From a virus (taxonomy: Duplodnaviria; Caudoviricetes), in IMG/VR virus record IMGVR_UViG_3300031645_000001, positions 1 through 50,673 of that record: a stretch of 50,673 nt of DNA, one strand, 5' to 3'. Below the pieces are notes generated by a model. It ran no database searches and had not been told where the DNA came from. It saw nothing but the letters and a program-made list of their open reading frames with translations. Position 1 is the first letter of the stretch, and the number at the start of each line of letters is the position of its first letter. Positions 35,778 through 50,673 of the stretch are shown here, piece by piece. The translations under genes and the position numbers were made by a program.

Positions 35778-36224
35778 CTAATCAAACATCCTTCTACAGG
35801 ATGATTTGTAAGTTTCAAATCCATGGGAATCTAAAAGCTGTTTTACTCTTTTACTAGAATAGTCAGCTATTATCCCATTGCAGTTATTAGCTTTAGCATA
35901 AATTTTGAAGTTTTTATAAACCTCATCCATTGAAGCTATTGAAACCATCCTAAAACCATATAGTGAATCAATATTTAAGACTCTATCTCCATAGTATTTC
36001 TCATCAATTATTTTAGTTGTAAAGATAAAGTTTATTCTCTTTTTATCTTCCTTATCTAACTTATAACCTATCCAAGCTTGATATAGACCTGATAGTATAT
36101 TTTCTAAATACTTTATACCAAAGTCTTGTTGAAACTTCTTTGGTATCTTATAAGCCTGTATTACACAATGTCTAATCATCTCCCAGAATAATGGCACTTG
36201 ATCCGGCTGAAGTTTAATAAACAT
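35778..36224 (-). CDS. GNAT-like protein preceding the ejection genes
   Basis: YAKANNCNGI...LLDSHGF pattern; usual podovirus position. Confidence 0.55.
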   Translation of the reverse strand: MFIKLQPDQVPLFWEMIRHCVIQAYKIPKKFQQDFGIKYLENILSGLYQAWIGYKLDKEDKKRINFIFTTKIIDEKYYGDRVLNIDSLYGFRMVSIASMDEVYKNFKIYAKANNCNGIIADYSSKRVKQLLDSHGFETYKSSCRRMFD

Positions 36225-37392
36225 CTATCTCTCCTTTTGGGTCTCTTGTAAATCGTTGGTCTATAAATTTAAACTGGATACTCATATAGGAAAGATCAAA
36301 AGTTCCATATATTAAACCTTTTAACCTAATCCTAAATTCAACTCCAGCTGTTCTTATATGTGCTACTCCTTCATCATTTAAAGGTGTCCAAGGAGTTGTT
36401 TTGAATTCTTCCTTCTTTTTATATCTGTAATCTATTGCAGCTTGCAGTGGGATATTAGAGATAGCATCAAACTGAATTGATTCAATAGATTTCAAACCTC
36501 TACGTTTAAGATCTAATGTATCAATTACTACTTCAACTGGATTAGCTTCTAATGTCTCAGGTGATACGCCAGTAAGATTTTCCTTAATACGATAGAGACC
36601 AGTTAAGTTAGCATACCCACCTGTTAGCGTTCCTTCATTAAAGATATACCCAGCTACTTCATCACTGATGTGAAGTCTGTCTTCATCAGCATCCCAAGTT
36701 AAGACAGGGTTAGTTAAAGGTAATAAGAATTCTTCATAACCTAGTTTGTTAAGTCCTTCAGATGTTAACTTATAAAGGCAACCTAGGGTGTCTATAAAGA
36801 AATGAGTAAATTGATCTCCACCAACAGCTGTCTTATTCTTAATACCTACCTTTGATAAATCTTTGAATCCAAAAGTTGGTGCAGGTGCTGAAACTGGAAA
36901 GGCTAAGGTTATTCCAGTGCTGCCATAAATTACTACATTCTTATCTAATTGCCTAACTTGATAAACATATCCAGTCCAAGACATAGGTCTACGACCTGCA
37001 TCATTTGTCAAGTCAAGTTCCATACTTACATTACCTATCTTACTCCAAGCTACCCAATTCTTTTTATTACTGTTAGCTACAGCCCAACCAGATAATGAAA
37101 CTTCAATTGTCATAGTTGAATTAACTATAGTAGTTGATATAGGAAACTCACCTGAAATAGATACACTAATAGATAATTCTAGATCATCCATTATATAGGT
37201 CCCATTTAAAGGATCACCTTCAAGTGAGATTTCTATAATAGGGACACCAAAGTAGTTATTAGCTGCGCAATCAAAGGTAAGGTCAGCATCAAAGTTATGA
37301 GGAGATGGAGTAGTAGGAGCAGGTGTAGTAAGTGTAGTTGTAGGAACTAGCGTTGTAGGTGGAACTGTTGTTGGAACAACTGTAGTTGCCAT
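36214..37392 (-). CDS. Tail hub/nozzle-like beta-propeller protein with N-terminal Thr/Pro tract
   Basis: MATTVVPTTVPPTTLVPTTTLTTPAPTTPSP; VAWS, VIYG, FFID propeller-like strands. Confidence 0.55.
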   Translation of the reverse strand: MATTVVPTTVPPTTLVPTTTLTTPAPTTPSPHNFDADLTFDCAANNYFGVPIIEISLEGDPLNGTYIMDDLELSISVSISGEFPISTTIVNSTMTIEVSLSGWAVANSNKKNWVAWSKIGNVSMELDLTNDAGRRPMSWTGYVYQVRQLDKNVVIYGSTGITLAFPVSAPAPTFGFKDLSKVGIKNKTAVGGDQFTHFFIDTLGCLYKLTSEGLNKLGYEEFLLPLTNPVLTWDADEDRLHISDEVAGYIFNEGTLTGGYANLTGLYRIKENLTGVSPETLEANPVEVVIDTLDLKRRGLKSIESIQFDAISNIPLQAAIDYRYKKKEEFKTTPWTPLNDEGVAHIRTAGVEFRIRLKGLIYGTFDLSYMSIQFKFIDQRFTRDPKGEIDVY

Positions 37393-37403
37393 CTAATCCT
37401 CCA

Positions 37404-37832
37404 CTATACTCCAGCTATTGCTAATGCTATATTTGCTACTGTATAAGTTCCACCATTGTAAGTTGTCATAGTACCGCCGAAATCTATGAAACCTACAACT
37501 GGATCATTAGCGATACTAGCAGCTATAATAACAGCACCACAAGCTTGGAGGTTTCCACCAGCTATAGGCCAAGCTGCATTATTCCAAGTTACAATTAATG
37601 CGTTTAGCAAGTCACTTCTTGTAGTAGCTACACCAGCAAGAGGTGTTCCTCCAATAGTATAGCCATAAGCTGTAGGTAGTTCATTAGCTGACAGATCCAA
37701 ATACTCATCATGATTTACTCTATTGAAGGTAAAGCCTGGCGCCATTAAGATAATATTAAAAGTAACAGCATCAAAGTCTACATCAGCACCAGAGATTAAC
37801 TCAAGTATGTTGTTAGATACTAAGGAAGCCAT
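37404..37832 (-). CDS. Small virion protein (paralog of 38650..39054)
   Basis: I.LM...ELPTAYGYTIGG..L...W pattern. Confidence 0.7.
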   Translation of the reverse strand: MASLVSNNILELISGADVDFDAVTFNIILMAPGFTFNRVNHDEYLDLSANELPTAYGYTIGGTPLAGVATTRSDLLNALIVTWNNAAWPIAGGNLQACGAVIIAASIANDPVVGFIDFGGTMTTYNGGTYTVANIALAIAGV

Positions 37833-37856
37833 TTTAATTCCTTTCAGTTTAAATTA

Positions 37857-37881
37857 AGTTTGTTCGAAAATCGGTTGATCT
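37857..37881. repeat. 25-bp dyad motif copy 20
   Basis: AGTTTGTTCGAAAATCGGTTGATCT; overlaps TAG. Confidence 0.9.
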
Positions 37882-38647
37882 AAAAATCCATTGGCCAGAT
37901 TTGAGGCTCTAAAGTATAAGGTACAAGTTCTTTATCAACATGTAGTGGTTTAACATAGTTATAACGAGTTAATTTGTTAACATATGTATCAATAGGGCCA
38001 GGAGCTATATCTCCGCCAGTACCAACAGAGAAAAAATCAAAGTCTGTTCCATCATCATCTATTCTTGGAGTATGCTGTCCTGGACCTATCCAGCCTCCAC
38101 CACCTATATCACCATCTACAATATCTATATCCCAAGCAACTGGTTCAGAAGATCCATCACTCCAAGCTTTTAATTTTAAACTGTTGCCTATAACTCTAAA
38201 TCTCATCCAAATCCAAGTATTCTCTATAAAACCAAAGAATGTACTACTAAGCACAGCTTGAGCTCCACCAGAAAGTTCTTTAGATATTCTTATTCTATTA
38301 TTGCGATTATCTGCAGTGCAACAATAGTATTCATAATTTGCTCCTAATGCTCCTGAAGCCCTAACAAACATCTCACAAGTTTCTTCATCAAAACCATTTT
38401 TAGTTCTCATCTTTCCTAAAACTTCTACATCAGCTGGTGTACCTACATCATCCCAAGAGATAAGATAAGACCTAGGATTAAATCCATTATAACATTGAAG
38501 GAAAAGTAACTGTCCACCCAAATCTCCACCAACTTGTATAAACCCTTGATGAGATCCAGCCCAAAGCCTTTCAGTCCAGTTTAATCCAGATGCTTGAGGA
38601 AAGACACAAACTGCACAATCTGTAAAATATGTTCTAAAAGTAGCCAT
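37880..38647 (-). CDS. ConA/lectin-like beta-sandwich virion protein
   Basis: WIWMRFRVIGNSLKLKAW...EP..W; homologous to the core of 49109..50617. Confidence 0.65.
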   Translation of the reverse strand: MATFRTYFTDCAVCVFPQASGLNWTERLWAGSHQGFIQVGGDLGGQLLFLQCYNGFNPRSYLISWDDVGTPADVEVLGKMRTKNGFDEETCEMFVRASGALGANYEYYCCTADNRNNRIRISKELSGGAQAVLSSTFFGFIENTWIWMRFRVIGNSLKLKAWSDGSSEPVAWDIDIVDGDIGGGGWIGPGQHTPRIDDDGTDFDFFSVGTGGDIAPGPIDTYVNKLTRYNYVKPLHVDKELVPYTLEPQIWPMDF

Positions 38648-38649
38648 AA

Positions 38650-39054
38650 TTAAATATCGAAAATCCCTGTTGGATCAAAGTTTATAAGATAATTACCACC
38701 ATCTGGAAAGTTAGTAAATTCCCAATAGCATAGTAGACAATCTAGTGTAGTATCTATTAATATAGCATGTGATACAGCAGCTACACCAAGATTTATCCAA
38801 GTAATATCAGATGCTTTAAAGGTAGTATATACAGCACGAGTAAGACTTTTGCCAGTTAAAGTTTCTCCACCTGCTCCATAACCTAGCCCGACTACTTCAA
38901 ATCCTGAAACGTCAGAGTAGTCTACATGAGCATCAACATCAGGAGTATAGCCAACTACTAACATTAGTTTAATAATGTTATTTAGAAGGTCTATATTTCC
39001 TTGAGGAAGTTGGTATGAAAATTCGTTATAAAAGTAACCATCTCCATGAGCCAT
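38650..39054 (-). CDS. Small virion protein (paralog of 37404..37832)
   Basis: IKLML...EVVGLGYGAGGETL...ITW. Confidence 0.7.
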   Translation of the reverse strand: MAHGDGYFYNEFSYQLPQGNIDLLNNIIKLMLVVGYTPDVDAHVDYSDVSGFEVVGLGYGAGGETLTGKSLTRAVYTTFKASDITWINLGVAAVSHAILIDTTLDCLLCYWEFTNFPDGGNYLINFDPTGIFDI

Positions 39055-39085
39055 AGTTTTGTCCTTATTGATTAAGTTGCTTTAT

Positions 39086-39292
39086 CTAATCTAGTTCTAT
39101 TAATTCTACCGACTTATGCCAATGCCCACAAGGGAAATGCTCAGAAGGATTAAGAGGAAGATTTCTATGTAAGCAAAACCTTCTAGCAAGTATCTCAGAT
39201 GACCATCTTTTATTATTCAAATAGCCATATTTATTCATCTGATCAACAAAATCCCATGGTCCTGCATCTTTATGATCTTCAATCCAACTCAT
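39086..39292 (-). CDS. Hypothetical protein
   Basis: Fills the operon gap. Confidence 0.55.
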   Translation of the reverse strand: MSWIEDHKDAGPWDFVDQMNKYGYLNNKRWSSEILARRFCLHRNLPLNPSEHFPCGHWHKSVELIELD

Positions 39293-39293
39293 C

Positions 39294-39791
39294 TTAATCC
39301 CCTAAAAATCCTGCACTTATGCTAACATCAGGTCCACCTACAAACAACTGCCCATTAACATCACAGACGCATAAGCATTTAGAAATTTCAGCTTCATCAT
39401 ACTCACACCAAGCACCAGTTTCTGGATCTAATGTTAGAAACTCAGCTCCATTTGTTAAAACTAAGAAGTCATAAAAGTCAGCTATAGTCCAAGTAGATCC
39501 TTCAGCTGCTGTGTAGATAAGAGTTAATACACCATCTATGTATGTGTAGATGTTAACTGGTGTACAAATCAAGCACCAATTTCTAAGTTGGAAGCACTGA
39601 GGAAATGGAAAGGTGCAAGCTGGTATAGTTGATATGTCAAAGTTTTTTAATTCATCTATGTTTATCAACTTACCAGCTTCTTGAAACACTCCATTAGCTA
39701 AAGTAAGTGCTCCAATATTCTTAGGATTATGTTTAGAGTTTCTAAGACCTTTCTTTAATCCATCTTTGAATATTATAGTATATTCTCGCAT
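39294..39791 (-). CDS. Virion protein, possible N-terminal half of a tail hub
   Basis: Propeller-like strands (IADFYDFLVLTNG, VNGQLFVGG). Confidence 0.55.
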   Translation of the reverse strand: MREYTIIFKDGLKKGLRNSKHNPKNIGALTLANGVFQEAGKLINIDELKNFDISTIPACTFPFPQCFQLRNWCLICTPVNIYTYIDGVLTLIYTAAEGSTWTIADFYDFLVLTNGAEFLTLDPETGAWCEYDEAEISKCLCVCDVNGQLFVGGPDVSISAGFLGD

Positions 39792-40189
39792 TAGAGTTTT
39801 CCTAAATTATCATCAAAGATTTCAAGATCTAATGGGTCATTGTTAGTAACCAATTTCATATTACTAAGCTGTTCCCTAGCAATTGTAGCAGACTTCTTTA
39901 GAACTTCCTCATATGAAATTCCAGGGTTTTTACTCTCTACCTTCTCCATAACTTTAGTAACAAGCTTTCTATTATTATCTAAGTCTTTATTATCTTTATA
40001 GAAATTATCACTTAATGTTTTAAGGTAGATAGATTGCTTTGATAAGTGAGTTATAACATGAGGGATAGCCTTTAAAGCTTCCTCAACACAGAACTTAGAT
40101 ATCCTCATTAAGTAATCACAGAACTGTGAGTAGGTTAATTTAGACATCCTGTTATATTCAGCTTCCGTAATAACGTCTTCTATTTTCAT
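39791..40189 (-). CDS. Hypothetical helical protein
   Basis: TAATG coupling; FYKDNKDL also occurs in the scaffold protein. Confidence 0.7.
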   Translation of the reverse strand: MKIEDVITEAEYNRMSKLTYSQFCDYLMRISKFCVEEALKAIPHVITHLSKQSIYLKTLSDNFYKDNKDLDNNRKLVTKVMEKVESKNPGISYEEVLKKSATIAREQLSNMKLVTNNDPLDLEIFDDNLGKL

Positions 40190-40402
40190 TACTTGACTCC
40201 AAACTTTTTCTTTCTAGAGGTTAAATAAGATCCATCAGCTGCTGAGTGATGAGTTTTAATCCCACCTTTAGGAACAGGCTTAGGTGCTGGAGTTGTTGGA
40301 ACCTTTAGTTTAGCAGGTCCTAATGCATCCATTAAAGATTTATATTTTTTATTGCTCTTTTTTAATTAGTTTAGCTGCCCAAGGCAATAGTCCATCAGCC
40401 AT
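40189..40402 (-). pseudogene. Small basic gene broken by one extra A in an A6 run (40358-40363)
   Basis: GGAGG plus ATG 40402 stops after 17 codons; removing one A gives 70 aa ending in TAATG at 40189. Confidence 0.55.
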
Positions 40403-40422
40403 GTTAGCCTCCTTTGTTTAAT

Positions 40423-40447
40423 TGTTTGTACAAATTTCGGACGAACT
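40423..40447. repeat. 25-bp dyad motif copy 21
   Basis: TGTTTGTACAAATTTCGGACGAACT; overlaps TAG. Confidence 0.9.
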
Positions 40448-41162: not shown

Positions 41163-41180
41163 ATTAATACCTTTTAAATA

Positions 41181-41214
41181 AGCTGAGAGGGAGCTACATT
41201 AGTCCCTCTCAGCT
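41181..41214 (-). terminator. Stem-loop after the major capsid gene (terminator/attenuator)
   Basis: AGCTGAGAGGGA / TCCCTCTCAGCT 12-bp stem with weak U tail. Confidence 0.65.
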
Positions 41215-41235
41215 ATTAGTGGCCTAGGAGGTTAG

Positions 41236-42534
41236 CTAAGCAAGATTATTATCCAGGCCGACACTGTTAAGGACAGCACACTTTTGTGGCAGTCCAAATT
41301 CAAGACCGCACTCAGTAAGATATTCCTCCCAAGTGCCATCAAGTCTACGTTGTCCGTAACCTTCCGGATGCTGTTTAGCAGATGACTCACCAAAGAACTG
41401 TGTATCATCTACATAACGATAGCCCATTTCCTTAGGTTCAATGATAATTCCCATGTTGCGAGTAGTTGGGTCATAAGAGAAGAGCGGATGAGTCTTCATA
41501 TGGATAGTACCAAAAGGTGTTATCCAGGAACGAATGTCCATCCCGTAGGTCTTCTGTGCTGGTTGAAGGTTAATCTGACCACCAGTCATTGCAAGAGCAT
41601 CAATGCCGAGCAAGAAGCCAGAGCCACAGAGACAAAGTTTCTCATTAGCTCCATAGCGAAAGATCTGCTCAAGTATAGCTTTGAACCAGATTTCTCCACT
41701 AGCTGCCCATGTTTGACCTGCATAGTCTACATTAAGTGAATAGTCATCACAATTAGCAGCCGCATACTGACGGATGAAGTTAATTACACCCATAGTAGTA
41801 CGTTCAGGTTTTCCGTTATCTCCGATATTCTCAGTTCGAATACCCCAGAGGAATGCAAGTTCTATTTCCCATGAGTGCATCTCGAGCGCTTCAGATTTCA
41901 TCTTCTGGTAAGCATCCCCAGTTCGAAGACAAGTCTTGCGAGCAGTTCGAGTAATAGAAAGTGGAGTACGGAAGATCTGTGTATAATTGTAGACCTTTAC
42001 TGGATTAAGTGCAATAGCATCAGGCATCTCACCGCCCTCAGGATTGATGTTACCTATGATCTTAAAACAATCACAGTCGCTAAGGTCATGACCTCCGGCA
42101 GCACCATTAGTATCAGCTTCGAGTAAGTTAATAGCAAGAACTGTATTAACTGCTCCTCGAGTTACTCCAGTTACTTTACCAACTACAGTCATACGATAGT
42201 CAGAAGCATCTTGAAGAAGAATCTGATGCCCTTCACGAATACGATTGCCAAGCACTGTAGTAATTTGAGCATAGACTACAGTAGGGCCAGCAGCAGTGTA
42301 AGCTACACTAAGGTCAGCTAAAGTATAAATACCCTCGATGTCTCCACCTACAGCTGTTTGCTCCTGTGTCCACCAATGGAACTGAGGATCGTCAACACCT
42401 TCATTGCCGATCATTGATAGGATAGCTGTTAAAGGAGCCATACCATTAGGGTAAAGCTTCATTATTTGTTGTCTCCAGTTCAGGGGTCTTTGATCAGTGA
42501 CCCAGTCACCGTTTCCTCTCATTCCAAGAAACAT
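41236..42534 (-). CDS. Major capsid protein (DUF5309/SU10-like HK97 fold)
   Basis: EG...P...NYTQIFRT..ITRT, IELAFLWG, TPFGTI; after the scaffold; followed by a stem-loop. Confidence 0.88.
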   Translation of the reverse strand: MFLGMRGNGDWVTDQRPLNWRQQIMKLYPNGMAPLTAILSMIGNEGVDDPQFHWWTQEQTAVGGDIEGIYTLADLSVAYTAAGPTVVYAQITTVLGNRIREGHQILLQDASDYRMTVVGKVTGVTRGAVNTVLAINLLEADTNGAAGGHDLSDCDCFKIIGNINPEGGEMPDAIALNPVKVYNYTQIFRTPLSITRTARKTCLRTGDAYQKMKSEALEMHSWEIELAFLWGIRTENIGDNGKPERTTMGVINFIRQYAAANCDDYSLNVDYAGQTWAASGEIWFKAILEQIFRYGANEKLCLCGSGFLLGIDALAMTGGQINLQPAQKTYGMDIRSWITPFGTIHMKTHPLFSYDPTTRNMGIIIEPKEMGYRYVDDTQFFGESSAKQHPEGYGQRRLDGTWEEYLTECGLEFGLPQKCAVLNSVGLDNNLA

Positions 42535-42557
42535 AATTGATTACCTCCTATTGATTA

Positions 42558-42582
42558 AGTTCGAACGATTTTTAAACGAACT
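42558..42582. repeat. 25-bp dyad motif copy 22
   Basis: AGTTCGAACGATTTTTAAACGAACT; upstream of the capsid RBS. Confidence 0.85.
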
Positions 42583-42594
42583 GTTAATGTTAAA

Positions 42595-43020
42595 TTATCC
42601 AGCCTGTGTAGTTGGTGCTGAAGAAGGTGGTGCTGTAGTAGGCGGCTGAGTAGTACCAGGAGCTGGTGTAGTTAAGAAACAAGGTACAGTTGTACCAAGA
42701 GCGTGCCAATTAAGGCCGTCACTATACAACAATGCTTTATCACATTTACCATTGAATACTATGTTAGTCCAGCACTCACTATCATCAAAATCTGTGATAG
42801 TAACATACTGTGTCGCATTAGCCCCTCGACATACTAGAGAGTAAAACCTCCCCTTTGCATCAGCTACAGGTGGAAGTGTTATAGTGATAGCTCCACTATC
42901 TCTATCCGCAGTAGGACGCAAGACATAGTCCCTAGTAGTCATCTGATAATTCGCATTAGGGTTATGGTATTTATCAGGTGACTCTCTATAATGTTGCTCA
43001 TTATTTTGCTCAAGTCCCAT
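42595..43020 (-). CDS. Probable capsid decoration protein with C-terminal Thr/Pro tail
   Basis: ITITLP...YSDGLNW fold; tail TTPAPGTTQPPTTAPPSSAPTTQAG; between scaffold and capsid genes. Confidence 0.6.
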   Translation of the reverse strand: MGLEQNNEQHYRESPDKYHNPNANYQMTTRDYVLRPTADRDSGAITITLPPVADAKGRFYSLVCRGANATQYVTITDFDDSECWTNIVFNGKCDKALLYSDGLNWHALGTTVPCFLTTPAPGTTQPPTTAPPSSAPTTQAG

Positions 43021-43046: not shown

Positions 43047-43850
43047 TTATCCCATTAAGACTTTGTTCATATCATCTATCTGGGATTCGATGTTAGTTAA
43101 ATTAGGTTTATTATCAGCCTTCCCAGACTTCCCTTTCTTACGAGGAAGCTTTGGAGGGGTTCCTTTGTCTAAAACTTTTTTACTAGGTTCTGGTAATTCA
43201 AGACGTTTGCGTACTTCAGGTGCTACATCAGCCATTACTTCTCCATAGGTTCTTGTAGTGTCTTTTGCATAAAGATCGTCAAAGACATTAGCTACAACCT
43301 TTTTAAACTTTACTAAGTCTTTGTTATCTTTGTAAAAACTTTCAGATAAAGTCTGCATGTTTGTAATAGATTTTACCATCTCAGGAACTGATTGATTAAC
43401 ACTTTGACCTAATGAACCTTGTACATCAGTTACTGCTTTTTGATAGATTTTGTTTAATAACTTGTTAAATTTCTTAGGATCATCCTTTACATCATCAAAG
43501 TCAAGATCACCTATAAAATCTTGATCGTCAAAAGTTAAAGGTGCCTTAGTTGTAGGAGCTAAAGTTTTAGGTGGTTTATCTTTTTCAGCCAGCTTCCTAC
43601 GTAATTCTTCAATAGTCTGATCACGGTCGTCAGGTGCTTCAGTTGAAGGTGAATCTGTTTTAGGCTCATCAGTTGTTGGCGGATCTGTTTTTAGGTCTTC
43701 TGGAGCATCAGTTGATGGAGCTTCAGTTTTAAGATCATCAGGTGCATCTGTTGAAGGTGCAGCTGTTGGATCTGGTTCATTACCAGGATCATCAAACGTC
43801 TTATTCATCTGATCAATGTCACTTTGGATCTTCTTCAAATATTCATTCAT
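43047..43850 (-). CDS. Scaffolding protein
   Basis: Acidic Pro/Thr-rich N-terminus, coiled coil, between portal and capsid genes. Confidence 0.7.
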   Translation of the reverse strand: MNEYLKKIQSDIDQMNKTFDDPGNEPDPTAAPSTDAPDDLKTEAPSTDAPEDLKTDPPTTDEPKTDSPSTEAPDDRDQTIEELRRKLAEKDKPPKTLAPTTKAPLTFDDQDFIGDLDFDDVKDDPKKFNKLLNKIYQKAVTDVQGSLGQSVNQSVPEMVKSITNMQTLSESFYKDNKDLVKFKKVVANVFDDLYAKDTTRTYGEVMADVAPEVRKRLELPEPSKKVLDKGTPPKLPRKKGKSGKADNKPNLTNIESQIDDMNKVLMG

Positions 43851-43854
43851 TTAG

Positions 43855-44148: not shown

Positions 44149-44149
44149 T

Positions 44150-46102
44150 TTAAACTCCTACAGGTACCATGTTACCTTTGTCAACTTCATTCATAACTTG
44201 TTCATCAGGCATAGTTTGTCCTTGCACCTGATCCATATTACGCCGAAAGTCTTCTACATTTTTAGCTCCTAGTTGCTGTGCTATGTACATGAAGATACGA
44301 GTGGTGTCAAACTGTTGCATAAGTTCAGGTGTTGTACCTATTATCTTAAACATCTGAATCCATGCCTCAGAGAAATTCCCTCCAGGTATGGAACCATCTC
44401 GGACTATTAAGTCGTAGTTTACAGCTAAGTCATAAGGTGTTACTCGAGCATTTTTCTTCTTATTACCATATATAGATGCTAACTGTTCAGCATATCGTCC
44501 TATTAAACGTACGTAAGTTTCTTGAGACTGATACTGTTGAGTATGAACAGCAAACATAGTTCCTATATCTTGCATGTACTGCATACCTATTATCATAGCT
44601 ATTCGCTGTAAACGTGAGATTGCTGAGCCACGAGTTCCTTGAAACTCACCTTTGGTTAAGCGCTCAGGTCCACCTTGTCGTAGAGATCCTTGCATAGATT
44701 GATCAGCACCTGAGATGCGATCCATCCACTGAGTTATGTAGCCTGAGTCAGCTATATTAGCACGAGTTATGTCTTGGACTTGAAGCTGCTGGACTACTTT
44801 ATCAACTCCACGTCCCCATGCAGGGCGACGTAAGCGAATTAGTTTTCCTGGTTGAGGATCCTTAAGATCGTTAATATTAACAAGATAAGGATCAACAACC
44901 AGCATATCATTAATAGCCTTCTTGACATTGCTAATATGACTATTGAATAAGAAGTCGAGAGTATGCTGAAGTCCATAGAGTACCTCCATACGCCCTATAG
45001 GTGTTATTGAGTAGCCGTCGTACTCTGGTGAAGCTACACTTATAGGATACATTCCATGATTGTGATCAGCTCGTTCACAAGCTATGATAATGTCATCTGA
45101 GGCAAGTTCAAAGTACCACTTTTCTGGATATTCATTAGTGCCTAGTTTCCAATCCTTTGGAATTAAGTTAACATACATCTTGATAGTGTCAACTGGATTA
45201 ACTGTCTGGGTCATTGACCTATCTATGTCAATAGATCCACCATGACGCTTTTGTCTATCACTTTGGTCTAGTGCCAGAGTTGAGCGTTTATCTTTTTTAC
45301 TTTTAAGATACTTTACGTTGAATAAGTTTGAATTAGGCCTGCTTTCCTCACTTAAAATATTCATATAGTTATCGCGGTCTACCCAACCATTGAATTCACC
45401 AGATTGAATATCTGAACTTGCTACTGATGGATCAGGAAGCCACATGTAAGGGTCGATGTTAGATAAGTCATTACCTTCGAATAAGAGAGATTCAACCATA
45501 TCTGTTTGGTGAGAAGTACTTTCACCTAATTCTGACTGAGTAATTATTGAAGACTTAACAGGTTTACGACCATAAGTAGAGCGCCATCCAGGAATTGCAA
45601 TACCTACTCCATAACCTAAAGCATCACGAAGGGAAGTGTGAATGTTTAGAGGTACTTTGTTTTTAATACAGTGCATACGAATTACTAACTCCATTAACAT
45701 AGCACCCTGTGTATCGTCGTCTTCTACACCCTCATATTGGAATAGAGGGTCTTGGAAAAAGGCCATTGAAAGATAAGTTAAGAGTGCTTCTAGCATAGAG
45801 TAGGAGTAAGGAAAGACTATAGATACAGGCTTGGAAGAGTCTTTCTTTTGAAGCTTTTCTTCCTTATCTTTTAAAGGGATGTAAGCAGTAAGTGTTCTAT
45901 CTATTTCCCTCCAAGATGAGAAGCGCTTAGATATCTCCATACGAGATTCATTAGCTCGCTGCCAGATCTTAGACCGTAAAGATTTATGGAGATCTGATTC
46001 AGGCCTGAGGTCTAGACCATTAGGATAGTCATAGTCAAATGACTTTTTATTGTATATGTCGTCCTTCCAAGAGGAAGGTTCTCCTTGTACTATGTATGGC
46101 AT
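44150..46102 (-). CDS. Portal protein
   Basis: 650 aa; DALGYGVGI, IDPYMWLPDP, RISGAD...TKGE, Gln-rich tail; head-module position. Confidence 0.85.
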   Translation of the reverse strand: MPYIVQGEPSSWKDDIYNKKSFDYDYPNGLDLRPESDLHKSLRSKIWQRANESRMEISKRFSSWREIDRTLTAYIPLKDKEEKLQKKDSSKPVSIVFPYSYSMLEALLTYLSMAFFQDPLFQYEGVEDDDTQGAMLMELVIRMHCIKNKVPLNIHTSLRDALGYGVGIAIPGWRSTYGRKPVKSSIITQSELGESTSHQTDMVESLLFEGNDLSNIDPYMWLPDPSVASSDIQSGEFNGWVDRDNYMNILSEESRPNSNLFNVKYLKSKKDKRSTLALDQSDRQKRHGGSIDIDRSMTQTVNPVDTIKMYVNLIPKDWKLGTNEYPEKWYFELASDDIIIACERADHNHGMYPISVASPEYDGYSITPIGRMEVLYGLQHTLDFLFNSHISNVKKAINDMLVVDPYLVNINDLKDPQPGKLIRLRRPAWGRGVDKVVQQLQVQDITRANIADSGYITQWMDRISGADQSMQGSLRQGGPERLTKGEFQGTRGSAISRLQRIAMIIGMQYMQDIGTMFAVHTQQYQSQETYVRLIGRYAEQLASIYGNKKKNARVTPYDLAVNYDLIVRDGSIPGGNFSEAWIQMFKIIGTTPELMQQFDTTRIFMYIAQQLGAKNVEDFRRNMDQVQGQTMPDEQVMNEVDKGNMVPVGV

Positions 46103-46104
46103 TT

Positions 46105-46431
46105 TCAGCCTCCAGAAAAATAACTTTTAATAATTTCTATTACCTTATCAATAGCGACGTAGCTAACAGTACCAGTTCCAGCACCTACACCAAGGTCTAA
46201 CTTACGATTCCTCTTTGGTAAATTAACAGCTTTATCAACTATCTTATCACATCTATCAAATTGGTTTTTGAACCCTGCTACAGTTTTACTACACACTTTT
46301 GTTTGATCTCTTACTTCACCTTGTAAGACATTAACTACTTGAAATATCAAACTAAGTTTCTTATCTGTAGAATCTATCTCATCAAATTGCTCAGTTGATA
46401 CTTTAATTTCTAACCCATTTTCATCAGCCAT
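46105..46431 (-). CDS. Coiled-coil protein with hydrophobic C-terminus (possible holin-like)
   Basis: C-terminal LGVGAGTGTVSYVAI segment. Confidence 0.5.
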   Translation of the reverse strand: MADENGLEIKVSTEQFDEIDSTDKKLSLIFQVVNVLQGEVRDQTKVCSKTVAGFKNQFDRCDKIVDKAVNLPKRNRKLDLGVGAGTGTVSYVAIDKVIEIIKSYFSGG

Positions 46432-46442
46432 TTATTATTCCC

Positions 46443-46467
46443 AGTTCGTCCGGAATTCGTACAATAT
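46443..46467. repeat. 25-bp dyad motif copy 23
   Basis: AGTTCGTCCGGAATTCGTACAATAT; overlaps TAA. Confidence 0.8.
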
Positions 46468-46787
46468 TATGGAGCTGCAGTTGTAGGTACCATAGTTGTA
46501 CAGTTTAAAGCTAGTGGATTGTTTACTATAAAGCTACACCATTGGCCAGTTAATCGTACTCCAGGATCAAATACTATACCTTGATATAGCCACTCACCAA
46601 CTTGATCAAGCTCACCTAGTGTGATGTCGTAGTATATACAGTTATCGTCTGTAGCACATAATATAGCAGCCCAGCACCCAGTCGTCCCATCAGGCTTCCT
46701 ATATCTAATCTGTAATGTATCGTAACCTGATAAGTCTAAATTTGTACAATAAGTTAATCTTGGAGTATCATTAACAAAGGTTTCCAT
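46467..46787 (-). CDS. BppU-N-like Ig-fold virion protein with short PTT tail
   Basis: DLSG...KPDG...W.A...LDQVGEW.YQ; ends TTMVPTTAAP. Confidence 0.65.
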   Translation of the reverse strand: METFVNDTPRLTYCTNLDLSGYDTLQIRYRKPDGTTGCWAAILCATDDNCIYYDITLGELDQVGEWLYQGIVFDPGVRLTGQWCSFIVNNPLALNCTTMVPTTAAP

Positions 46788-47970
46788 AGCATCTTAGTTC
46801 CTTAGTTATTATTGAATGACAGATTATTTCATCAACTATTATTGAATTACAAGTTTTTATACAAACTTCTGCATCACTAATTAAAGTAGTAGGCACTAGA
46901 GTAGTTGGAGGAATAGTTGTTGGCACTACTGTTGTAGGTGCAGAAGTAGTTACTATAGATGTTGTTGGCAATTGAGTTGTAGGCGCTGTAGTAGTAGGAA
47001 CGATAGTAGTGGGTGAGATAGTAGTGGGTGCAACTGTAGTAAGTAAGACAGTAGTCGGTGCGATAGTAGTAGGTAATAAACTAGTAGGTGCAGCTGTAGT
47101 TGGTACAACTGTTGTCACAGCTAAAGTAGTAGGTGCTAGAGTTGTCGGTGCTAAACTTGTGGGCGCTAACGTAGTAGGAGCCAAGGTAGTAGGTAAGATT
47201 GTAGTAGGGACTACTGTAGTAGGAGCTAAAGTAGTCGATAAGATAGTTGTTGGAGCTAAAGTAGTTGGAACAGTAGTTGTTGGATACACTGTAGTAGATA
47301 CTGGTGTAGTAGCTACAAATACTGTAGTAGGTGCAACAGTTGTCGGATATACTGTAGTTGGAGCTAATGTAGTCAGTAATAAAGTCGTGGGTGCAAGTGT
47401 CGTAGGTGCTAAGGTCGTTGGAGCAAGACTGGTTGGAGTTACAGTAGTTGGAGTCAGAGTAGTTGGAGCTAAGCTTGTCGGCGCAGCTGTGGTAGGTGCT
47501 GCAGTAGTCGTAGGTATTGGAGTAGTAGCTACTAGAGATGTAGTAGGTGAAATAGTTGTGTAGATAGGTGTAGTTGGAACAGGTGTCGTTGCAGGTGCTA
47601 TCGTAGTAGGCGTCACCGTTGTTGGTGCTAAGGTGGTAGGCGATAGTGAAGTGGGAGCTAAAGTGGTTGGAGTTGTGGTTGTAGGAACAGCTGTCGTTAC
47701 AAAATCAGCAACCACATCTTGAACTTCAATAATTGGAGCTGAAGTTGTGGGTGCCAAAGTAGTAGATGCTATAGTTGTAGGTGCTACTGTTGTAGAAGGT
47801 GATGTAGTAGGAGACTCAGCGTCTCTCAAAACCTCGATACATGCTTGTATGATATTGACAGAGGGATCGCCAGCCCTGAGTACCTCGACACAAGCTTGAG
47901 TGATATTGACAGAGGGATCGCCAGCCCTGAGTACCTCGACACAAGCTTGAGTGATTTTAATATCTGTCAC
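46771..47970 (-). CDS. Mucin-like Thr/Pro-rich virion protein
   Basis: About 300 aa of PTT(L/V/I)A-type pentapeptides; 17-aa N-terminal repeats; Cys-containing C-terminus. Confidence 0.8.
   Translation of the reverse strand: MTDIKITQACVEVLRAGDPSVNITQACVEVLRAGDPSVNIIQACIEVLRDAESPTTSPSTTVAPTTIASTTLAPTTSAPIIEVQDVVADFVTTAVPTTTTPTTLAPTSLSPTTLAPTTVTPTTIAPATTPVPTTPIYTTISPTTSLVATTPIPTTTAAPTTAAPTSLAPTTLTPTTVTPTSLAPTTLAPTTLAPTTLLLTTLAPTTVYPTTVAPTTVFVATTPVSTTVYPTTTVPTTLAPTTILSTTLAPTTVVPTTILPTTLAPTTLAPTSLAPTTLAPTTLAVTTVVPTTAAPTSLLPTTIAPTTVLLTTVAPTTISPTTIVPTTTAPTTQLPTTSIVTTSAPTTVVPTTIPPTTLVPTTLISDAEVCIKTCNSIIVDEIICHSIITKELRCYGNLC
47850..47951. repeat. Perfect 2 x 51-bp tandem repeat, with a partial third copy
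   Basis: 47850-47900 identical to 47901-47951; encodes TQACVEVLRAGDPSVNI. Confidence 0.95.
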
Positions 47971-49058
47971 GAACTTACCTCAACACCTATTTCCGCACCT
48001 GTTATATCAGCTTCCGCCCACGCTGCCGAATCGTCAGGATTAACCTGGTATACCTTCGCAAAAGTTTCATAATCAGTACTTGGGTCTACTTCGTCACTTT
48101 TATAATAAGTTCCGTTAGACCGGGTAAGAATCTTGGCTCCCTTAGCTCCAGCATCAGTTTTATTAATACAGATACAAAATTTAACTCCATAAATAGTGCC
48201 ACCTGAAGCCAATGACGGTAATGCATATGAATCTTGATGATCAACCGTATCGCTTGAATTATAAGTAGAATCGTCGTCAGGGGTAACATCATCTACATTT
48301 TCATAGTTGCTGCCAACGGAAGGGGTGAAATCTGCATCTGCACCTGCCCCATTTGGCCTGAGCACATCACATCGACAGTCACCAAGGAAATCGTTTTGAG
48401 GGGCATCACCTGCATTATCCATAATCCAGATGCAATCAAATGAAGTATCTAAATCATTATGGACTCCACCGAATTGAAACTGTCTTGCATAGACGTTTGC
48501 GCCTTCAAGAGTGTCTTGACCTGACAAATCTAATATCTGAGTGCCATCTAATTTGACTTCTACAGTTCCAGCACTGGCATGAATTAGAAGTTTCACTTCA
48601 AGATAATGCCATTTATAATCTTGAAGTGTTGCACCGGAGCTCGTTCCAAGCAAAGTTGTATTGCGATATGCTTTTAAATTATCACTTGAATCCCAACATA
48701 AATTCAGGTGATTATTTCCAGCTCCATCAGATATTCTAATAAATGGATATGAAGCACTTTCTGATGGAGCATCAGCGTTGTCTTTATAAAAAACAACTCC
48801 AACGATTACCGTAGCGGGTGATAATGTATTTACTAAGGTATATTTGAAATAAGCAGAAGTTCCATAATCTGTATTTGGTAATCTTAGTCCTATATTAGGA
48901 GATCCAAATCTACTATAGGCAGTACTAAAACCACCCTGAGGCAAATACCACTGAGTATTTTGAGATTCAACTGTTTCTGTGGAAACAGCATTAAAATCCG
49001 CAGAAGTACCATTATCATCTGCATAACTTCTAAAACCATCAAAGTGTAGTAAAGTCAT
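47967..49058 (-). CDS. LamG/ConA-like virion protein
   Basis: WHYLEVK...GTVEVKLDG...FDCIWI...FLGD pattern. Confidence 0.65.
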   Translation of the reverse strand: MTLLHFDGFRSYADDNGTSADFNAVSTETVESQNTQWYLPQGGFSTAYSRFGSPNIGLRLPNTDYGTSAYFKYTLVNTLSPATVIVGVVFYKDNADAPSESASYPFIRISDGAGNNHLNLCWDSSDNLKAYRNTTLLGTSSGATLQDYKWHYLEVKLLIHASAGTVEVKLDGTQILDLSGQDTLEGANVYARQFQFGGVHNDLDTSFDCIWIMDNAGDAPQNDFLGDCRCDVLRPNGAGADADFTPSVGSNYENVDDVTPDDDSTYNSSDTVDHQDSYALPSLASGGTIYGVKFCICINKTDAGAKGAKILTRSNGTYYKSDEVDPSTDYETFAKVYQVNPDDSAAWAEADITGAEIGVEVSS

Positions 49059-49084
49059 TATTTACCTATATATTAACAATATTA

Positions 49085-49109
49085 AGTTTGTCCGAATTTT
49101 GTACGTTCT
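49085..49109. repeat. 25-bp dyad motif copy 24
   Basis: AGTTTGTCCGAATTTTGTACGTTCT; overlaps TAA. Confidence 0.8.
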
Positions 49110-50673
49110 TATGCAGCAGATATTTTCACTTTAATCCATCCACTACATACAAAAGGTATTGTATAATCATGCCATATATCAGCTTCACAATTAACTTCTG
49201 AATTCCCTTGTTTATACTTTAATTCTGGATCACCAAATCCAGCATCATATTTATCTATAGTTAATCTAACTCTTCCTGACCCTATATGCCAAGTTTCTGA
49301 TTCTTCTGATTCTCCAGAGTCAAATAGTATTCTTTCAGTATCAGCTACACCAGCATCTACTATTTGACCTGTACCAGTCCAATTAACGTTAAAGTTTCTT
49401 ATATTATCCTCAACAACTCCAGTATCATGGCCCCAACAAACTGTTCCAATAGTAGGGGCACTTGTGGTAGGAACAAGTGAAGTTGGCGCTAAAGTTGTTG
49501 GTGCAAGTGTTGTTGGTGCTAGAGTAGTAGGGGCCGTTGTCGTGAGCGCTAAGGTTGTGGGAGCTAGAGAAGTTGGTGCAAGTGTAGTTGGACCTAAAGT
49601 AGTAGGAATACCTGTAGTTGGTGTTAACGTAGTAGGTGCTATTGTAGTCGGTGCAACCGTAGTCGGTGGCACTGTACCAGCGTCATCTCCACAAACCCCT
49701 ACAGAAAAATAATCACAGTCTCCATAACCATAATTGAGAGTGCTTGATGAAAATCTATGAGCAACCCAACCAGATCCAGTAACATCAGAATCGGTCTCAT
49801 CAATTAACCAAGTTCCTGGTTCAGCATCGCCATCTTCCCAGACACGAACCTTTAAACTTGTTCCTATAGCCCTAAATCTAATCCAGTACCAAGTGTCGTA
49901 ATCAACAGTAAAGGCTTCTGATTTTATTAAATAATCAAGAGCCCCACCTGTACGCTTACGAAGTTGAAGAACATCTGAATCAAATATGTGAGCTAAATAG
50001 CCAGAACAACTACCAACGCTACCAGATCCTCTAACCACTACACCGGTGGTTGAAGAATAACCATTATCTGATATTCTAGATTTACATAAAACTTCTACGT
50101 CTGTAGGAGCTCCAACATCATCCCAAGAAACTACACAATCAGTAGATTCATAGATTTTACATTCTAAACACTTACCTCCAATATCTCCATCATCTCGAAT
50201 AGTAAACCACTGATCTCCATTGTCCCATCTAAGTGTCCAATCCCCTGGAGTCAAATCAGTAGTATATTCACTAAAGTCAGTAACATAACTTGCAGGCGTA
50301 CAAGTAGTAGGTGCAACTGTTGTAGGTGCAAGACTTGTTGGTGCTAGAGTAGTCGGTGCCATTGTCGTAGGCGCCAACGTAGTAGGTGCTAAGCTTGTCG
50401 GAGCTAGTGTAGTAGGTTCCATGGTGGTAGGAGCTAACGTGGTAGGAGCTAATGTAGTAGGTTCTAATGTTGTAGGGCTTATAGTTGTAGGTGCTAACGT
50501 AGTGGGTGCAAGTGTCGTAGGGGCTAAGGTAGTAGGTGCTAATGTGGTCGGCACTGTGGTAGTTGGTGCACTAGTTGTGGGTACAACTGTTGTTCCACTC
50601 GCCGCCGCATAATCCAATATCGACCAAACCTTACCATACGACCACTGCTCAGTATCATCAGTAACACCAGAGT
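49109..50673 (-). CDS. Virion protein with a lectin-like domain between two mucin-like PTTLA stalks (540 aa including 1..131)
   Basis: PTTLA repeats at about 50303-50597 and 49460-49676; central domain homologous to 37880..38647. Confidence 0.8.
   Translation of the reverse strand, partial: SGVTDDTEQWSYGKVWSILDYAAASGTTVVPTTSAPTTTVPTTLAPTTLAPTTLAPTTLAPTTISPTTLEPTTLAPTTLAPTTMEPTTLAPTSLAPTTLAPTTMAPTTLAPTSLAPTTVAPTTCTPASYVTDFSEYTTDLTPGDWTLRWDNGDQWFTIRDDGDIGGKCLECKIYESTDCVVSWDDVGAPTDVEVLCKSRISDNGYSSTTGVVVRGSGSVGSCSGYLAHIFDSDVLQLRKRTGGALDYLIKSEAFTVDYDTWYWIRFRAIGTSLKVRVWEDGDAEPGTWLIDETDSDVTGSGWVAHRFSSSTLNYGYGDCDYFSVGVCGDDAGTVPPTTVAPTTIAPTTLTPTTGIPTTLGPTTLAPTSLAPTTLALTTTAPTTLAPTTLAPTTLAPTSLVPTTSAPTIGTVCWGHDTGVVEDNIRNFNVNWTGTGQIVDAGVADTERILFDSGESEESETWHIGSGRVRLTIDKYDAGFGDPELKYKQGNSEVNCEADIWHDYTIPFVCSGWIKVKISAA
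50601..50673. repeat. Terminal direct repeat (circular assembly overlap), copy 2
   Basis: Identical to 1-73. Confidence 0.97.

Follow-up and report, generated by a model that had tools for sequence, protein, structure and literature searches.

A candidate phage-encoded mucin-type O-glycosylation module with portable Thr/Pro acceptor tags in an uncultured short-tailed phage

Virion glycosylation was reportedly described for the mycobacteriophages Che8 and Rita by Freeman et al. in 2023, and the glycans are said to be located on Ser/Thr-rich C-terminal extensions, likewise in Corndog and Myrna. Further systems that are relevant for comparison include (i) Listeria GmaR, a cytoplasmic enzyme of the GT-A type, soluble and acting on Ser/Thr residues of flagellin before export or assembly, (ii) Pro-Thr repeats known as "PT boxes," which link the folded domains of cellulases and xylanases from bacteria and carry O-glycans when made in the native host, and (iii) the chloroviruses, whose capsid glycans are N-linked. 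According to PMC11256854, glycosyltransferases encoded by Che8 and Rita modify the capsid proteins of these phages and form a glycan shield; in this source and in the literature searched, self-glycosylation of the phage particle has been demonstrated only in mycobacteriophages. Chloroviruses encode their own glycosylation enzymes for the capsid protein (PMC4691112 and PMC7019647). The families GT27 and GT60 both O-glycosylate Ser/Thr of polypeptides and contain DxH in place of DxD, and in GT27 the metal is bound by a C-terminal His (PMC7185993). Our literature search retrieved no paper on a GT27-like enzyme or on mucin-like virion tracts in phages.

Thr/Pro-rich tracts in the structural block

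The DNA analyzed here, referred to as the window (50,673 nucleotides), is the whole genome of a 50.6-kb short-tailed phage of uncultured origin with a GC content of 38%. Its first 73 bases are the same as its last 73 (bases 1 to 73 repeat 50601 to 50673), which is an assembly overlap of a circle. The genome contains an SU10-like podophage structural module with an SU10-type capsid and portal and internal ejection proteins, including a transglycosylase; an SLT domain is present in a 1,877-aa protein, and there is a weak match to P22 gp7. Among deposited phages, Desulfofustis phage LS06-2018-MD01 is the nearest (capsid identity of 48.7%). The landmark genes are as follows.

2253..3794, minus strand: large terminase (phrog_38, 5.8e-60)
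41236..42534, minus strand: major capsid protein, SU10 type (PF17236, 2.6e-33), with no tag in this phage
44150..46102, minus strand: portal protein (PF23899, 2.9e-17)

Nearly all PTT-type tracts are found in the minus-strand structural block, and in the greedy gene set 81 PTT tripeptides were encoded on the minus strand versus 2 on the plus strand. Together with the counts per ORF given below, this bears out the claim of an earlier note on this DNA that PTT-type tags are present on many proteins.

49109..50673, minus strand: main part of the join-spanning 540-aa protein, with two PTT arrays (28 PTT)
1..131, minus strand: first codons of the join-spanning protein, with the ATG at window position 131
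46771..47970, minus strand: 399-aa array protein (41 PTT)
36214..37392, minus strand: conserved 392-aa protein of the tail module, PTT-tagged at its N terminus (~37297-37389; 4 PTT, all in residues 2 to 32)
42595..43020, minus strand: 141-aa capsid-adjacent protein with a knob-like beta domain and a C-terminal Thr/Pro tail (2 PTT, within the 32-aa C-terminal tail)
46467..46787, minus strand: 106-aa protein that ends in a short PTT tail at ~46470-46502, also present in homologues (1 PTT, inside the 11-aa C-terminal CTTMVPTTAAP)
43047..43850, minus strand: protein in the scaffold position, containing an acidic P/S/T/D/E repeat at ~43545-43772 (39-nt period; 2 PTT)

Nearly all of the remaining ORFs contain no PTT, and the maximum among them is one. 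Two forms of tract can be distinguished, namely, long period-5 arrays, found in the 399-aa and the 540-aa proteins, and short terminal tails on three further proteins. The P+T fraction in the best 25-aa window amounted to 0.76, 0.72, 0.68, and 0.60 for the four strongest proteins and to 0.44 for the scaffold-position protein, with a genome-wide mean of 0.12.

The PTT tracts are conserved as peptide and not as DNA. Tandem Repeats Finder detected 15-nt periods in the arrays with matches of only 61 to 80%, and the PTTLA units differed in their DNA in all cases (9/9 in the 399-aa protein and 14/14 in the join-spanning protein), in agreement with the previous observation that array codons vary synonymously while the peptide is selected. 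By a hand estimate based on array codon usage, the divergence of the PTTLA DNA is at the level expected from saturated synonymous sites and no higher. Neutral slippage, which would make the arrays functionless low-complexity expansions, would account for their tandem arrangement and for their variable length between relatives, in which array proteins range from 172 to 898 aa. It is at odds with the difference in DNA of every PTTLA unit, with the finding that the longest exact DNA word recurring inside any array is 14 nt, with the limitation of the arrays to one gene block, and with the retention of the same motif at the same protein ends in relatives with a core identity of 34 to 67%. This reading is disfavored, and we consider it extremely improbable.

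The open frame of the 540-aa protein can be read across the join on the minus strand, as the earlier note had stated. Its PTT arrays (~50282-50593 and ~49442-49678; Tandem Repeats Finder arrays at 50304-50545 and 49474-49668) are located around a globular domain that has matches in phrog_24476 and in the protein of 255 aa encoded at 37880-38647, and a C-terminal domain follows. The 399-aa protein consists of three 17-aa N-terminal repeats (a 51-nt repeat at 47831-47955 with 94% matches), a PTT array of ~310 aa (~46879-47820), and a Cys-rich C-terminal segment of 35 aa (~46774-46878). The motif of this segment is kept in the array proteins of the related records L014, L019, L020, L023, L027, and L056, the N termini of which are unrelated. 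The layout of the array proteins is that of a variable domain, a stalk, and a conserved anchor. The gene of the 106-aa protein is always found directly after the array-protein gene. Among the matches listed, the PTT tail ends 10 of its 12 homologues, which correspond to 11 distinct sequences because L014 and L047 are identical. This tag is too short to stand out from the present genome alone, and it is the homologues that support it.

All 75 related loci contain a member of the 141-aa family, and the C termini of this family are of alternative types. The beta domain of this protein covers residues ~15 to 110, and its tail corresponds to ~42598-42693; in the structural model (pLDDT of 82, above 90 in the core), the tail has no secondary structure. 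The core resembles N-terminal modules of tailspikes (Z of 11.3 to 9.7) and the capsid-spike knob of Pa223 (residues 195 to 289; Z of 8.8), a small common fold that says nothing of a capsid location, and the BFVD matches include tail fiber proteins. Homologues of the 392-aa protein are present in 14 of 14 near-complete relatives, and PF11134 (Phage_stabilise) is a weak lead only. The Thr/Pro tract of this family is an internal linker in L019 and L023 and N-terminal in L025, and the major capsid protein homologue of L031 has a C-terminal PTT tail. The tag is thus portable, as had been proposed, given its occurrence at the end of a capsid protein, inside or at the N terminus of the 392-aa family, and next to unrelated N-terminal domains. 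The inclusion of the scaffold in the tag set did not stand: its tract is an acidic P/S/T/D/E repeat and not PTT(L/V/I)A, its presence is inconsistent among relatives that carry the enzyme described below, and it probably lies outside the set. Pfam and phrog profile searches yielded no family match for this protein. The tagged proteins would be part of the virion, to judge solely by where their genes lie and how they fold.

Pro/Thr linkers are able to work without sugar. The tracts may alternatively be plain, unmodified linkers, extended by proline, which space domains or fray as tails, while the glycosyltransferase has another target, for instance a small molecule or a glycan of the host envelope. 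We regard this explanation as rather unlikely. It agrees with the location of tracts between folded domains in the join-spanning protein and in the 392-aa homologues of L019 and L023, with the layout of the array proteins, and with the unstructured tail of the 141-aa model, but it gives no reason for the retention, in three protein families, of short tails to which nothing further is attached.

A soluble GT27-like enzyme and its gene neighborhood

The candidate modifying enzyme and the genes next to it are as follows.

3820..4788, minus strand: soluble GT-A glycosyltransferase, predicted to be GT27-like, the "GT2" gene of the window (PF00535, residues 4 to 114)
4785..5450, minus strand: SAM-dependent methyltransferase, overlapping the glycosyltransferase gene (Pfam Methyltransf_12/25/11)
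5444..6250, minus strand: extended-SDR nucleotide-sugar epimerase/dehydratase-type enzyme (Pfam Epimerase, 5.8e-37)
6247..6951, minus strand: HTH protein, possible small terminase (HTH_23/GerE matches)

The glycosyltransferase has 322 aa, with PF00535 as the sole Pfam domain found, and its AF2 model has a pLDDT of 94.0 and a pTM of 0.92. In a Z-score ranking over 48,161 chains, which is independent of Foldseek, the best fold was mouse GalNAc-T1 (ppGalNAc-T1; 8v9q_A, Z of 25.5, rmsd of 3.0, 281 of 322 residues aligned), followed by Toxoplasma GalNAc-T3 (TgGalNAc-T3; Z of 24.8) and TarS (Z of 18.4). With Foldseek, GalNAc-Ts made up 30 of the 35 matches listed within ranks 1 to 50 (E of ~1e-12, TMq of 0.59 to 0.67). 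The fold is thus nearer to GT27 than to any other glycosyltransferase, including polysaccharide and teichoic acid enzymes, at a sequence identity to GalNAc-Ts of 14 to 19%. That polypeptide transferases are the closest folds is not accounted for if the tracts are plain linkers and the enzyme has another target. Residues D94, S95, H96, and H222, the last being the C-terminal His, do not vary among 33 homologues. In a profile alignment, CvDSH of the enzyme falls on LDSHCEC of fly PGANT9, with an E of 0.05 that lacks significance at the sequence level. The conserved residues W194-G195-G196 and H222 are aligned with WGGEN...GHI of PGANT9, at only 6.6 bits for this stretch and with the E-N of the motif not kept. 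The GT27-like identity of this soluble enzyme, indicated by the model, is new here, and we propose that the protein is a polypeptide Thr O-glycosyltransferase.

Pfam and hydrophobicity scans revealed neither a C-terminal ricin-type lectin domain nor a type II membrane anchor. No membrane segment was predicted (no hydrophobic 19-mer above 1.6), and the enzyme would therefore be able to meet phage proteins in the cytoplasm; this feature also speaks against the plain-linker explanation. Our scans detected the enzyme family almost solely in phage-sized contigs.

The methyltransferase co-occurs with the closest orthologues of the glycosyltransferase, and natural fusions of both enzymes exist among the glycosyltransferase homologues (P0101 and P0104, of 541 and 547 aa). 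For the SDR enzyme, every NCBIfam equivalog scored below its cutoff, and hence no specificity was assigned. The glycosyltransferase cassette lies in a cargo region, which is bounded upstream by the gene of the HTH protein; its homologues adjoin TerL directly in L011 and G003, and it is possibly a small terminase.

Co-occurrence of the enzyme and the tails in related phages

An orthologue of the enzyme is present in 6 of 14 near-complete relatives. Thr/Pro tails or arrays were found in all six of these and in none of the eight others, which contain 0 to 3 PTT per genome. The term "GT-lacking" here means the absence of this orthologue only, because three of the eight genomes encode another PF00535 protein of larger size (540 to 712 aa in open frame). 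Among the 31 related records in which both states were readable, 19 had enzyme and tail, 10 had neither, 2 had the enzyme only, and none had the tail only; the tail state refers to whether the capsid-adjacent protein of the 141-aa family ends in a Thr-rich tail, by a rule set after the tails had been seen, and a stricter Pro/Thr-tract rule flags 6 of 12 readable tails in enzyme-baited loci. As to the two enzyme-only records, L043 has 11 PTT on another protein, and in L052 both genes are split. Four tail-bearing records without an enzyme match all end at most 886 nt upstream of TerL or inside TerL. The earlier note had suggested a comparison with homologues from GT-lacking phages, and this comparison came out in favor of the note, with Thr-rich tails only in relatives with the orthologous enzyme. 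On the TerL tree, the enzyme state changes independently ~4 times, 2 of them on well-supported branches; significance is out of reach of a sign test, and the co-occurrence is phylogenetically thin. Enzyme and tracts are also neighbors elsewhere. In L176, which has no other gene in common with the window by blastp, the gene immediately after that of the enzyme encodes a protein of 110 aa with a PTT array at its end; in L181, a homologue of the 106-aa protein, with tail, is encoded immediately after the enzyme; and in L160, three enzyme paralogues lie beside a protein with 54% Thr.

These data bear on two of the alternatives. Some GT2-type proteins other than this enzyme are present in tail-less relatives, as would be expected if the tracts were plain linkers, but the restriction of the tails to relatives with the orthologous enzyme is then left without explanation. 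A host system may instead glycosylate the tracts, with the phage enzyme only extending or altering the glycan; the presence of two or three glycosyltransferase paralogues in some relatives would fit such multistep glycan building. However, the enzyme resembles initiating transferases, the tails vanish where this single enzyme is absent, and general bacterial protein O-glycosylation takes place outside the cytoplasm, the compartment in which phage structural proteins assemble. We therefore consider a host origin of the modification quite improbable.

Proposed module and comparison with known systems

Most likely, the phage sugar-coats its own particle, since it encodes both mucin-like stretches and a soluble GalNAc-T-shaped enzyme, and we consider it reasonably probable that these belong to a mucin-type O-glycosylation module encoded by the phage, in which the acceptor tags are portable. 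The earlier reading of the tracts as a portable glycosylation tag thus gains from the fold of the enzyme, its co-occurrence with the tails, and the portability of the latter, and loses the scaffold tract. In the mechanism envisaged, for which we infer the action of the enzyme on the tracts, the sugar used, and the purpose of the coat, (i) the GT27-like enzyme would be made in the cytoplasm, probably alongside the late genes because it is encoded on the same strand as the terminase and structural block; (ii) it would move a sugar from a nucleotide sugar onto threonines in the Thr/Pro tracts of new structural proteins, with the SDR enzyme possibly supplying or altering the donor and the methyltransferase possibly capping the sugar; (iii) the long period-5 PTT(L/V/I)A arrays would be stalks that connect a conserved anchor to a variable outer domain, and the short terminal tails as a second acceptor form on small surface-appendage proteins; and (iv) the glycosylated tracts would become extended, hydrophilic, and protease resistant, so that the particle gains a sugar brush and the outer domains are held off the particle. 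Shielding, adhesion, and diffusion through biofilm, as proposed in the earlier note, would be possible purposes of such a coat. As a counterpoint, every repeat unit contains an aliphatic residue, which is unusual for mucins.

If this proposal is true, virion glycosylation reaches a widespread group of uncultured short-tailed phages, and bacterial viruses encode small, soluble relatives of an enzyme type regarded as the eukaryotic initiator of mucin glycans. A small enzyme and a peptide tag of ~20 to 30 residues would then be a possible tool for the cytoplasmic O-glycosylation of chosen proteins, and there would be a testable handle on changes of the phage surface such as protease resistance, less sticking, or binding to polysaccharide matrices. 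A broader idea, plausible but too tentative for us to favor, is that prokaryotic viruses are a reservoir of mucin-type O-glycosylation, in which phage-only, lectin-less GT27 homologues coevolved with portable Thr/Pro cassettes that move among capsid, spike, tail, and stalk proteins and build a mucin-like brush without a host secretory pathway.

With the Che8 type, the present locus shares a predicted phage glycosyltransferase and Ser/Thr-rich extensions of structural proteins. In contrast to the siphophages of high-GC Actinobacteria, the phage that carries this module is a 38% GC SU10-like podophage, and stalk proteins with long period-5 arrays are among the putative acceptors. No homology of the enzyme to the mycobacteriophage glycosyltransferases was seen, as tblastn gave no match at an E of 1e-3 in 50,697 deposited phage records. 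The chloroviruses differ in being eukaryotic giant viruses without mucin-like repeats. PT boxes belong to secreted cellular enzymes and depend on host machinery, whereas free terminal tails and a dedicated phage enzyme are found here. GmaR, which is among the sequence-profile matches to the enzyme (22ao_A, E of 4e-4), is likewise a soluble GT-A enzyme aimed at Ser/Thr of a structural protein, as proposed here for the phage enzyme; its fold match is far weaker than that of GT27, and its acceptor is folded flagellin and not repeats. Compared with CAZy GT27, the phage enzyme is lectin-less and anchor-less, has only 322 aa and 14 to 19% identity, and would be cytoplasmic in a bacterial virus. With this family it shares the closest fold and DxH, to which a weakly scoring alignment would add the WGG stretch with the C-terminal His, and it has Thr/Pro-rich tandem tracts as putative acceptors; in the PTTLA repeats Pro is found at +3 of the second Thr, a position that favors GalNAc-Ts.

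Threonine/proline tracts and their genomic setting

The window covers the entire record as a single contig of 50,673 bases, of which positions 1-73 are identical to 50601-50673 (73 bases). These identical ends indicate that the assembly is a circle of 50,600 bases and, as far as can be told, represent the overlap of that circle and not a biological terminal repeat. The GC content of the window is 34-42%, no tRNA genes were found in it, and the minus strand forms one long late block. In transcription order, this block starts with an HTH protein (possibly the small terminase), an SDR nucleotide-sugar enzyme, a methyltransferase, a GT2-domain glycosyltransferase, and the large terminase; continues with proteins of 154, 528, 540, 363, and 399 aa, followed by small proteins of 106 and 108 aa; proceeds to the portal, a 97-aa protein, the scaffold-position protein, the 141-aa protein, and an SU10-type major capsid protein; and ends with tail-module genes and ejection proteins, the final one of which has 1877 aa and contains a transglycosylase domain. 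Among deposited phages, Desulfofustis phage LS06-2018-MD01 is nearest (capsid identity, 48.7%), and the Pseudomonas Bruynogheviruses are distant relatives (23%). Between the two divergent gene blocks, there is an AT dinucleotide run of approximately 60 bases (8017-8079); it coincides with the GC minimum and a sharp change in GC skew and may correspond to an origin or a promoter region. The features of relevance here are the following.

3820-4788 (-), GT2-domain (PF00535) glycosyltransferase, 322 aa ("the enzyme")
4785-5450 (-), methyltransferase
5444-6250 (-), SDR enzyme
36214-37392 (-), 392-aa protein
42595-43020 (-), 141-aa protein, beside the capsid gene
43047-43850 (-), scaffold-position protein
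46467-46787 (-), 106-aa protein
46771-47970 (-), 399-aa array protein
49109-50673 continuing into 1-131 (-), 540-aa join-spanning array protein

On re-count, all the tract elements claimed in the earlier note were present, including the frame read across the join, which encodes a 540-aa protein on the minus strand with its ATG at 131. The 399-aa protein contained 41 PTT tripeptides and the join-spanning protein 28; the 392-aa protein had four, all in its first 32 residues, the 141-aa protein two, in its C-terminal 32 residues, the scaffold-position protein two, and the 106-aa protein one, within its C-terminal 11 residues. Almost every remaining open reading frame (ORF) had none, and the count by strand was 81 (minus) versus 2 (plus). 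The best 25-residue windows of the four strongest proteins were composed of 60-76% Pro plus Thr, compared with a genome mean of 12%. The scaffold, which the earlier note had listed among the tagged proteins, does contain a tract, but this tract is acidic and of a different kind and was therefore left out of the PTT set.

At the DNA level, the long PTT(L/V/I)A arrays have a 15-nt period with matches of only 61-80%. All PTTLA units had different DNA, both in the 399-aa protein (9 of 9) and in the join protein (14 of 14); no repeated DNA word longer than 14 nt was found within any array, and array codon use was close to that of the other late genes. Judged by a hand estimate, the DNA divergence of these units equals synonymous saturation. 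The peptide has thus been kept while its DNA has fully drifted, as had been claimed from the synonymous variation, and neutral slippage is a highly improbable explanation of tracts in this state. At its N-terminus, the 399-aa array protein has three 17-residue repeats (ITQACVEVLRAGDPSVN; 47831-47955), whose DNA repeats in tandem with a 51-nt period and 94% matches. Quite unlike the fully scrambled PTT arrays beside them, these repeats are a young duplication at the DNA level.

The glycosyltransferase

We retrieved 197 database homologues of the enzyme (E values up to 1e-5), which were unnamed or generically named; their longest listed contigs reach approximately 51.7 kb, comparable in size to a phage genome. 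Two homologues, P0101 and P0104, are natural fusions of a SAM methyltransferase and a glycosyltransferase (541 and 547 aa), which indicates a functional tie between the adjoining methyltransferase and glycosyltransferase genes of the window. For the SDR enzyme, every NCBIfam match was below the cut-off, so that no specificity was assigned. A tblastn search of the enzyme against 50,697 deposited phage records returned no match, and a pattern scan of 185,579 prokaryote species (one genome per species) returned a single relative. The latter sits on a 6.3-kb contig assigned to a metagenome bin labeled archaeon; this contig resembles a phage fragment and carries no information on the host. Several related records fetched whole (G numbers) encode, in the variable region near the terminase, another type of PF00535 protein, which is larger (open frames, 540-712 aa; G007:C1:39272-39709, G008:C1:20640-21821, G013:C1:12948-13406, and G006:C1:5282-5821); in G007, G008, and G013, it is present and the orthologue of the window enzyme is absent.

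In an alignment of 33 homologues, D94, S95, H96, and H222 were invariant, and the model built from this alignment had a pLDDT of 94.0 and a pTM of 0.92. In a Foldseek search against solved structures, polypeptide GalNAc-transferases ranked first, accounting for 30 of the 35 matches listed within ranks 1-50. A structural search against all representatives gave GalNAc-T1 (Z 25.5; rmsd 3.0 over 281 residues) and Toxoplasma GalNAc-T3 (Z 24.8), with TarS, chondroitin polymerase, SpsA, and others lower, at approximately 18. The best solved matches of the sequence profile were TarS, chondroitin synthase, TarP, and GmaR, which covered only the N-terminal half of the enzyme; GalNAc-T10 aligned over residues 4-223. 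From residue 60 on, the profile placed, with weak scores, CvDSH over LDSHCEC of fly PGANT9 and WGG...H over its WGGEN...GHI, and the C-terminal 243 residues alone yielded only a chance match to sequences of solved structures. Excerpts of PMC7185993 state that the DxH variant marks families GT27 and GT60, both of which glycosylate Ser/Thr of polypeptides, and that in GT27 the metal is bound by a C-terminal His. No membrane segment was found in the enzyme. Since it lacks the lectin domain and the membrane anchor of animal GT27 enzymes, we call it GT27-like and not a member of GT27. A prediction of the complex between the enzyme and the C-terminal segment of the 141-aa protein (residues 100-141) scored 0.00 and weighs neither way.

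Tract proteins among related phages

Using the capsid protein as bait, we retrieved 75 related loci from viral contigs (L numbers, also used for loci baited with the enzyme). The 141-aa family adjoins the capsid gene in all 75 and consists of a conserved core of approximately 110 residues with one of several endings.

Endings of the 141-aa family
Thr/Pro tail, often opening WPG-x-STT-x-PPGTT
Short GYDYDYP-type ending
Short FRFTWDDLFPK-type ending
Extension of 180-400 residues

In relatives without the GT27-like enzyme, either a Tyr/Asp-rich peptide of the GYDYDYP type or a peptide of the FRFTWDDLFPK type, both conserved, replaces the Thr tail (L037, L041, L046, L050, L044, and L048; L010, L042, L049, and L054). 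The model of the 141-aa protein has a pLDDT of >90 over residues 21-100 and a tail without secondary structure. Tailspike N-terminal modules match its core at Z 11.3, 10.7, and 9.7, and the Pa223 capsid spike matches it at Z 8.8 over spike residues 195-289, a region named the C-terminal knob in an excerpt of the Pa223 preprint. Given these likenesses of the modeled core, it is reasonable to infer that the 141-aa protein is a surface appendage.

The array proteins (172-898 aa) are unrelated to one another in their N-terminal domains. Their common end is a Cys-rich C-terminal segment of approximately 35 residues (46774-46878 in the window; also in L014, L019, L020, L023, L027, and L056), resulting in a layout of variable domain, stalk, and conserved end. 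The 106-aa gene always directly follows the array-protein gene, which suggests that the Cys-rich end and the 106-aa protein may be anchor and partner; of the 12 listed homologues of the 106-aa protein (11 distinct sequences), 10 have a PTT tail. In the 392-aa family, the tract is either at the N-terminus (L025 and the window) or inside the protein, between an additional N-terminal domain and the conserved body (L019 and L023). The major capsid protein of L031 (2354-3727) has a 24-residue C-terminal PTT tail that is missing from that of the window. From these shifting placements among the proteins of relatives, the tract appears to behave as a movable cassette.

Protein-atlas matches, which serve as leads only, linked the 392-aa protein to PF11134 and the 106-aa protein to BppU_N. 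Pfam searches at E values up to 5 gave no match for the middle and C-terminal domains of the join protein or for the 255-, 363-, and 528-aa proteins. The 255-aa protein (37880-38647) and the middle of the join protein (49679-50281) have a domain in common, which the end of phrog_24476 (annotated as a phosphodiesterase) matches as well. Relatives possess one protein of 406-664 aa whose N-terminus matches the 68-aa protein of the window (39086-39292). At this locus, the window has the 68-aa protein and three small proteins (38650-39054, 37880-38647, and 37404-37832), two of them of phrog_644, which together look like a split set replacing the tail-fiber gene.

Co-occurrence of enzyme and tails

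Fourteen related records were fetched whole (estimated completeness, 79-100%), and blastp identified an enzyme orthologue in six: G001, G004, G005, G006, G010, and G014. In five of these six, the member of the 141-aa family ends in the Thr/Pro tail. The remaining one, G010, has 11 PTT on an 827-aa protein encoded next to the enzyme gene. The eight records without an orthologue have other 141-aa endings and 0-3 PTT per whole genome. Among 50 additional, fragmentary records, the enzyme was present in five, four of which have tails. The fifth is L052, an 8.9-kb fragment on which the enzyme gene (8010-8885) and the 141-aa family gene (5860-6175) are each split between two frames, which may reflect joint decay or sequencing errors.

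With the enzyme as bait, viral contigs yielded 66 loci, 65 of which were examined. A Pro/Thr-tract protein was found in only 27 of them, since many of these loci end before the structural genes. Thr runs occurred in all 12 readable 141-aa tails, only six of which satisfied the strict Pro/Thr rule. All enzyme-baited loci but L176 have the same backbone and hence add few independent contrasts. Three loci provide further hints of co-occurrence. L176 has no other window gene by blastp, and its enzyme gene is directly followed by that of a small protein with a C-terminal PTT array; in L181, a tailed 106-aa homologue follows directly. L160 has three enzyme paralogues beside a 249-aa protein (15993-16742) with 54% Thr; this protein contains a nearly pure Thr/Ser run of approximately 150 residues, and its Pro content is 3%.

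We then pooled the records with a terminase gene in which both states were readable (n = 31). Under a looser tail rule chosen after seeing the data, enzyme and tail occurred together in 19, neither in 10, the enzyme only in 2, and the tail only in 0. A first automatic tail classifier was too strict, miscalling obvious tails in L020, L028, and L033, and was superseded by this rule. In the terminase tree, enzyme-less records are at four places (L010, L011, L042, and a clade of seven), and the tail state changes with the enzyme at all four; only two of these contrasts are on well-supported branches, so that the tree test has no statistical power. Four tail-bearing records without the enzyme were found, but all end inside the terminase gene or at most 886 nt upstream and are thus uninformative and not contrary. 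The earlier note had proposed a comparison with phages lacking the glycosyltransferase, and within the limits of this post hoc rule and these four places, the tail state changes with that of the enzyme.

Taken together, the best-supported account is that the phage probably encodes a cytoplasmic mucin-type O-glycosylation module, in which the GT27-like enzyme would act in the cytoplasm on the Thr/Pro tracts as acceptors. The main rival, that the tracts are unmodified linkers and the enzyme has another target, is consistent with the stalk-like layouts of the array proteins but does not fit the co-occurrence or the specific fold of the enzyme, and we regard it as doubtful. With tail and enzyme changing together, glycosylation of the tracts started by the host appears improbable. 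If present, a glycan coat might confer resistance to proteases, lower or raise the stickiness of the particle, or space its outer domains.

In open-access papers and preprints, we found no description of phages with GT27-like enzymes or with mucin-like tracts on the virion. Mycobacteriophages are known to glycosylate their virions with enzymes that they encode themselves, as described in excerpts of PMC11256854. The putative module of the window differs from that system in that (i) its enzyme is unrelated at the sequence level, given the lack of tblastn matches in the deposited phage records, (ii) the phage is of a different type, and (iii) its proposed acceptors include true tandem arrays.
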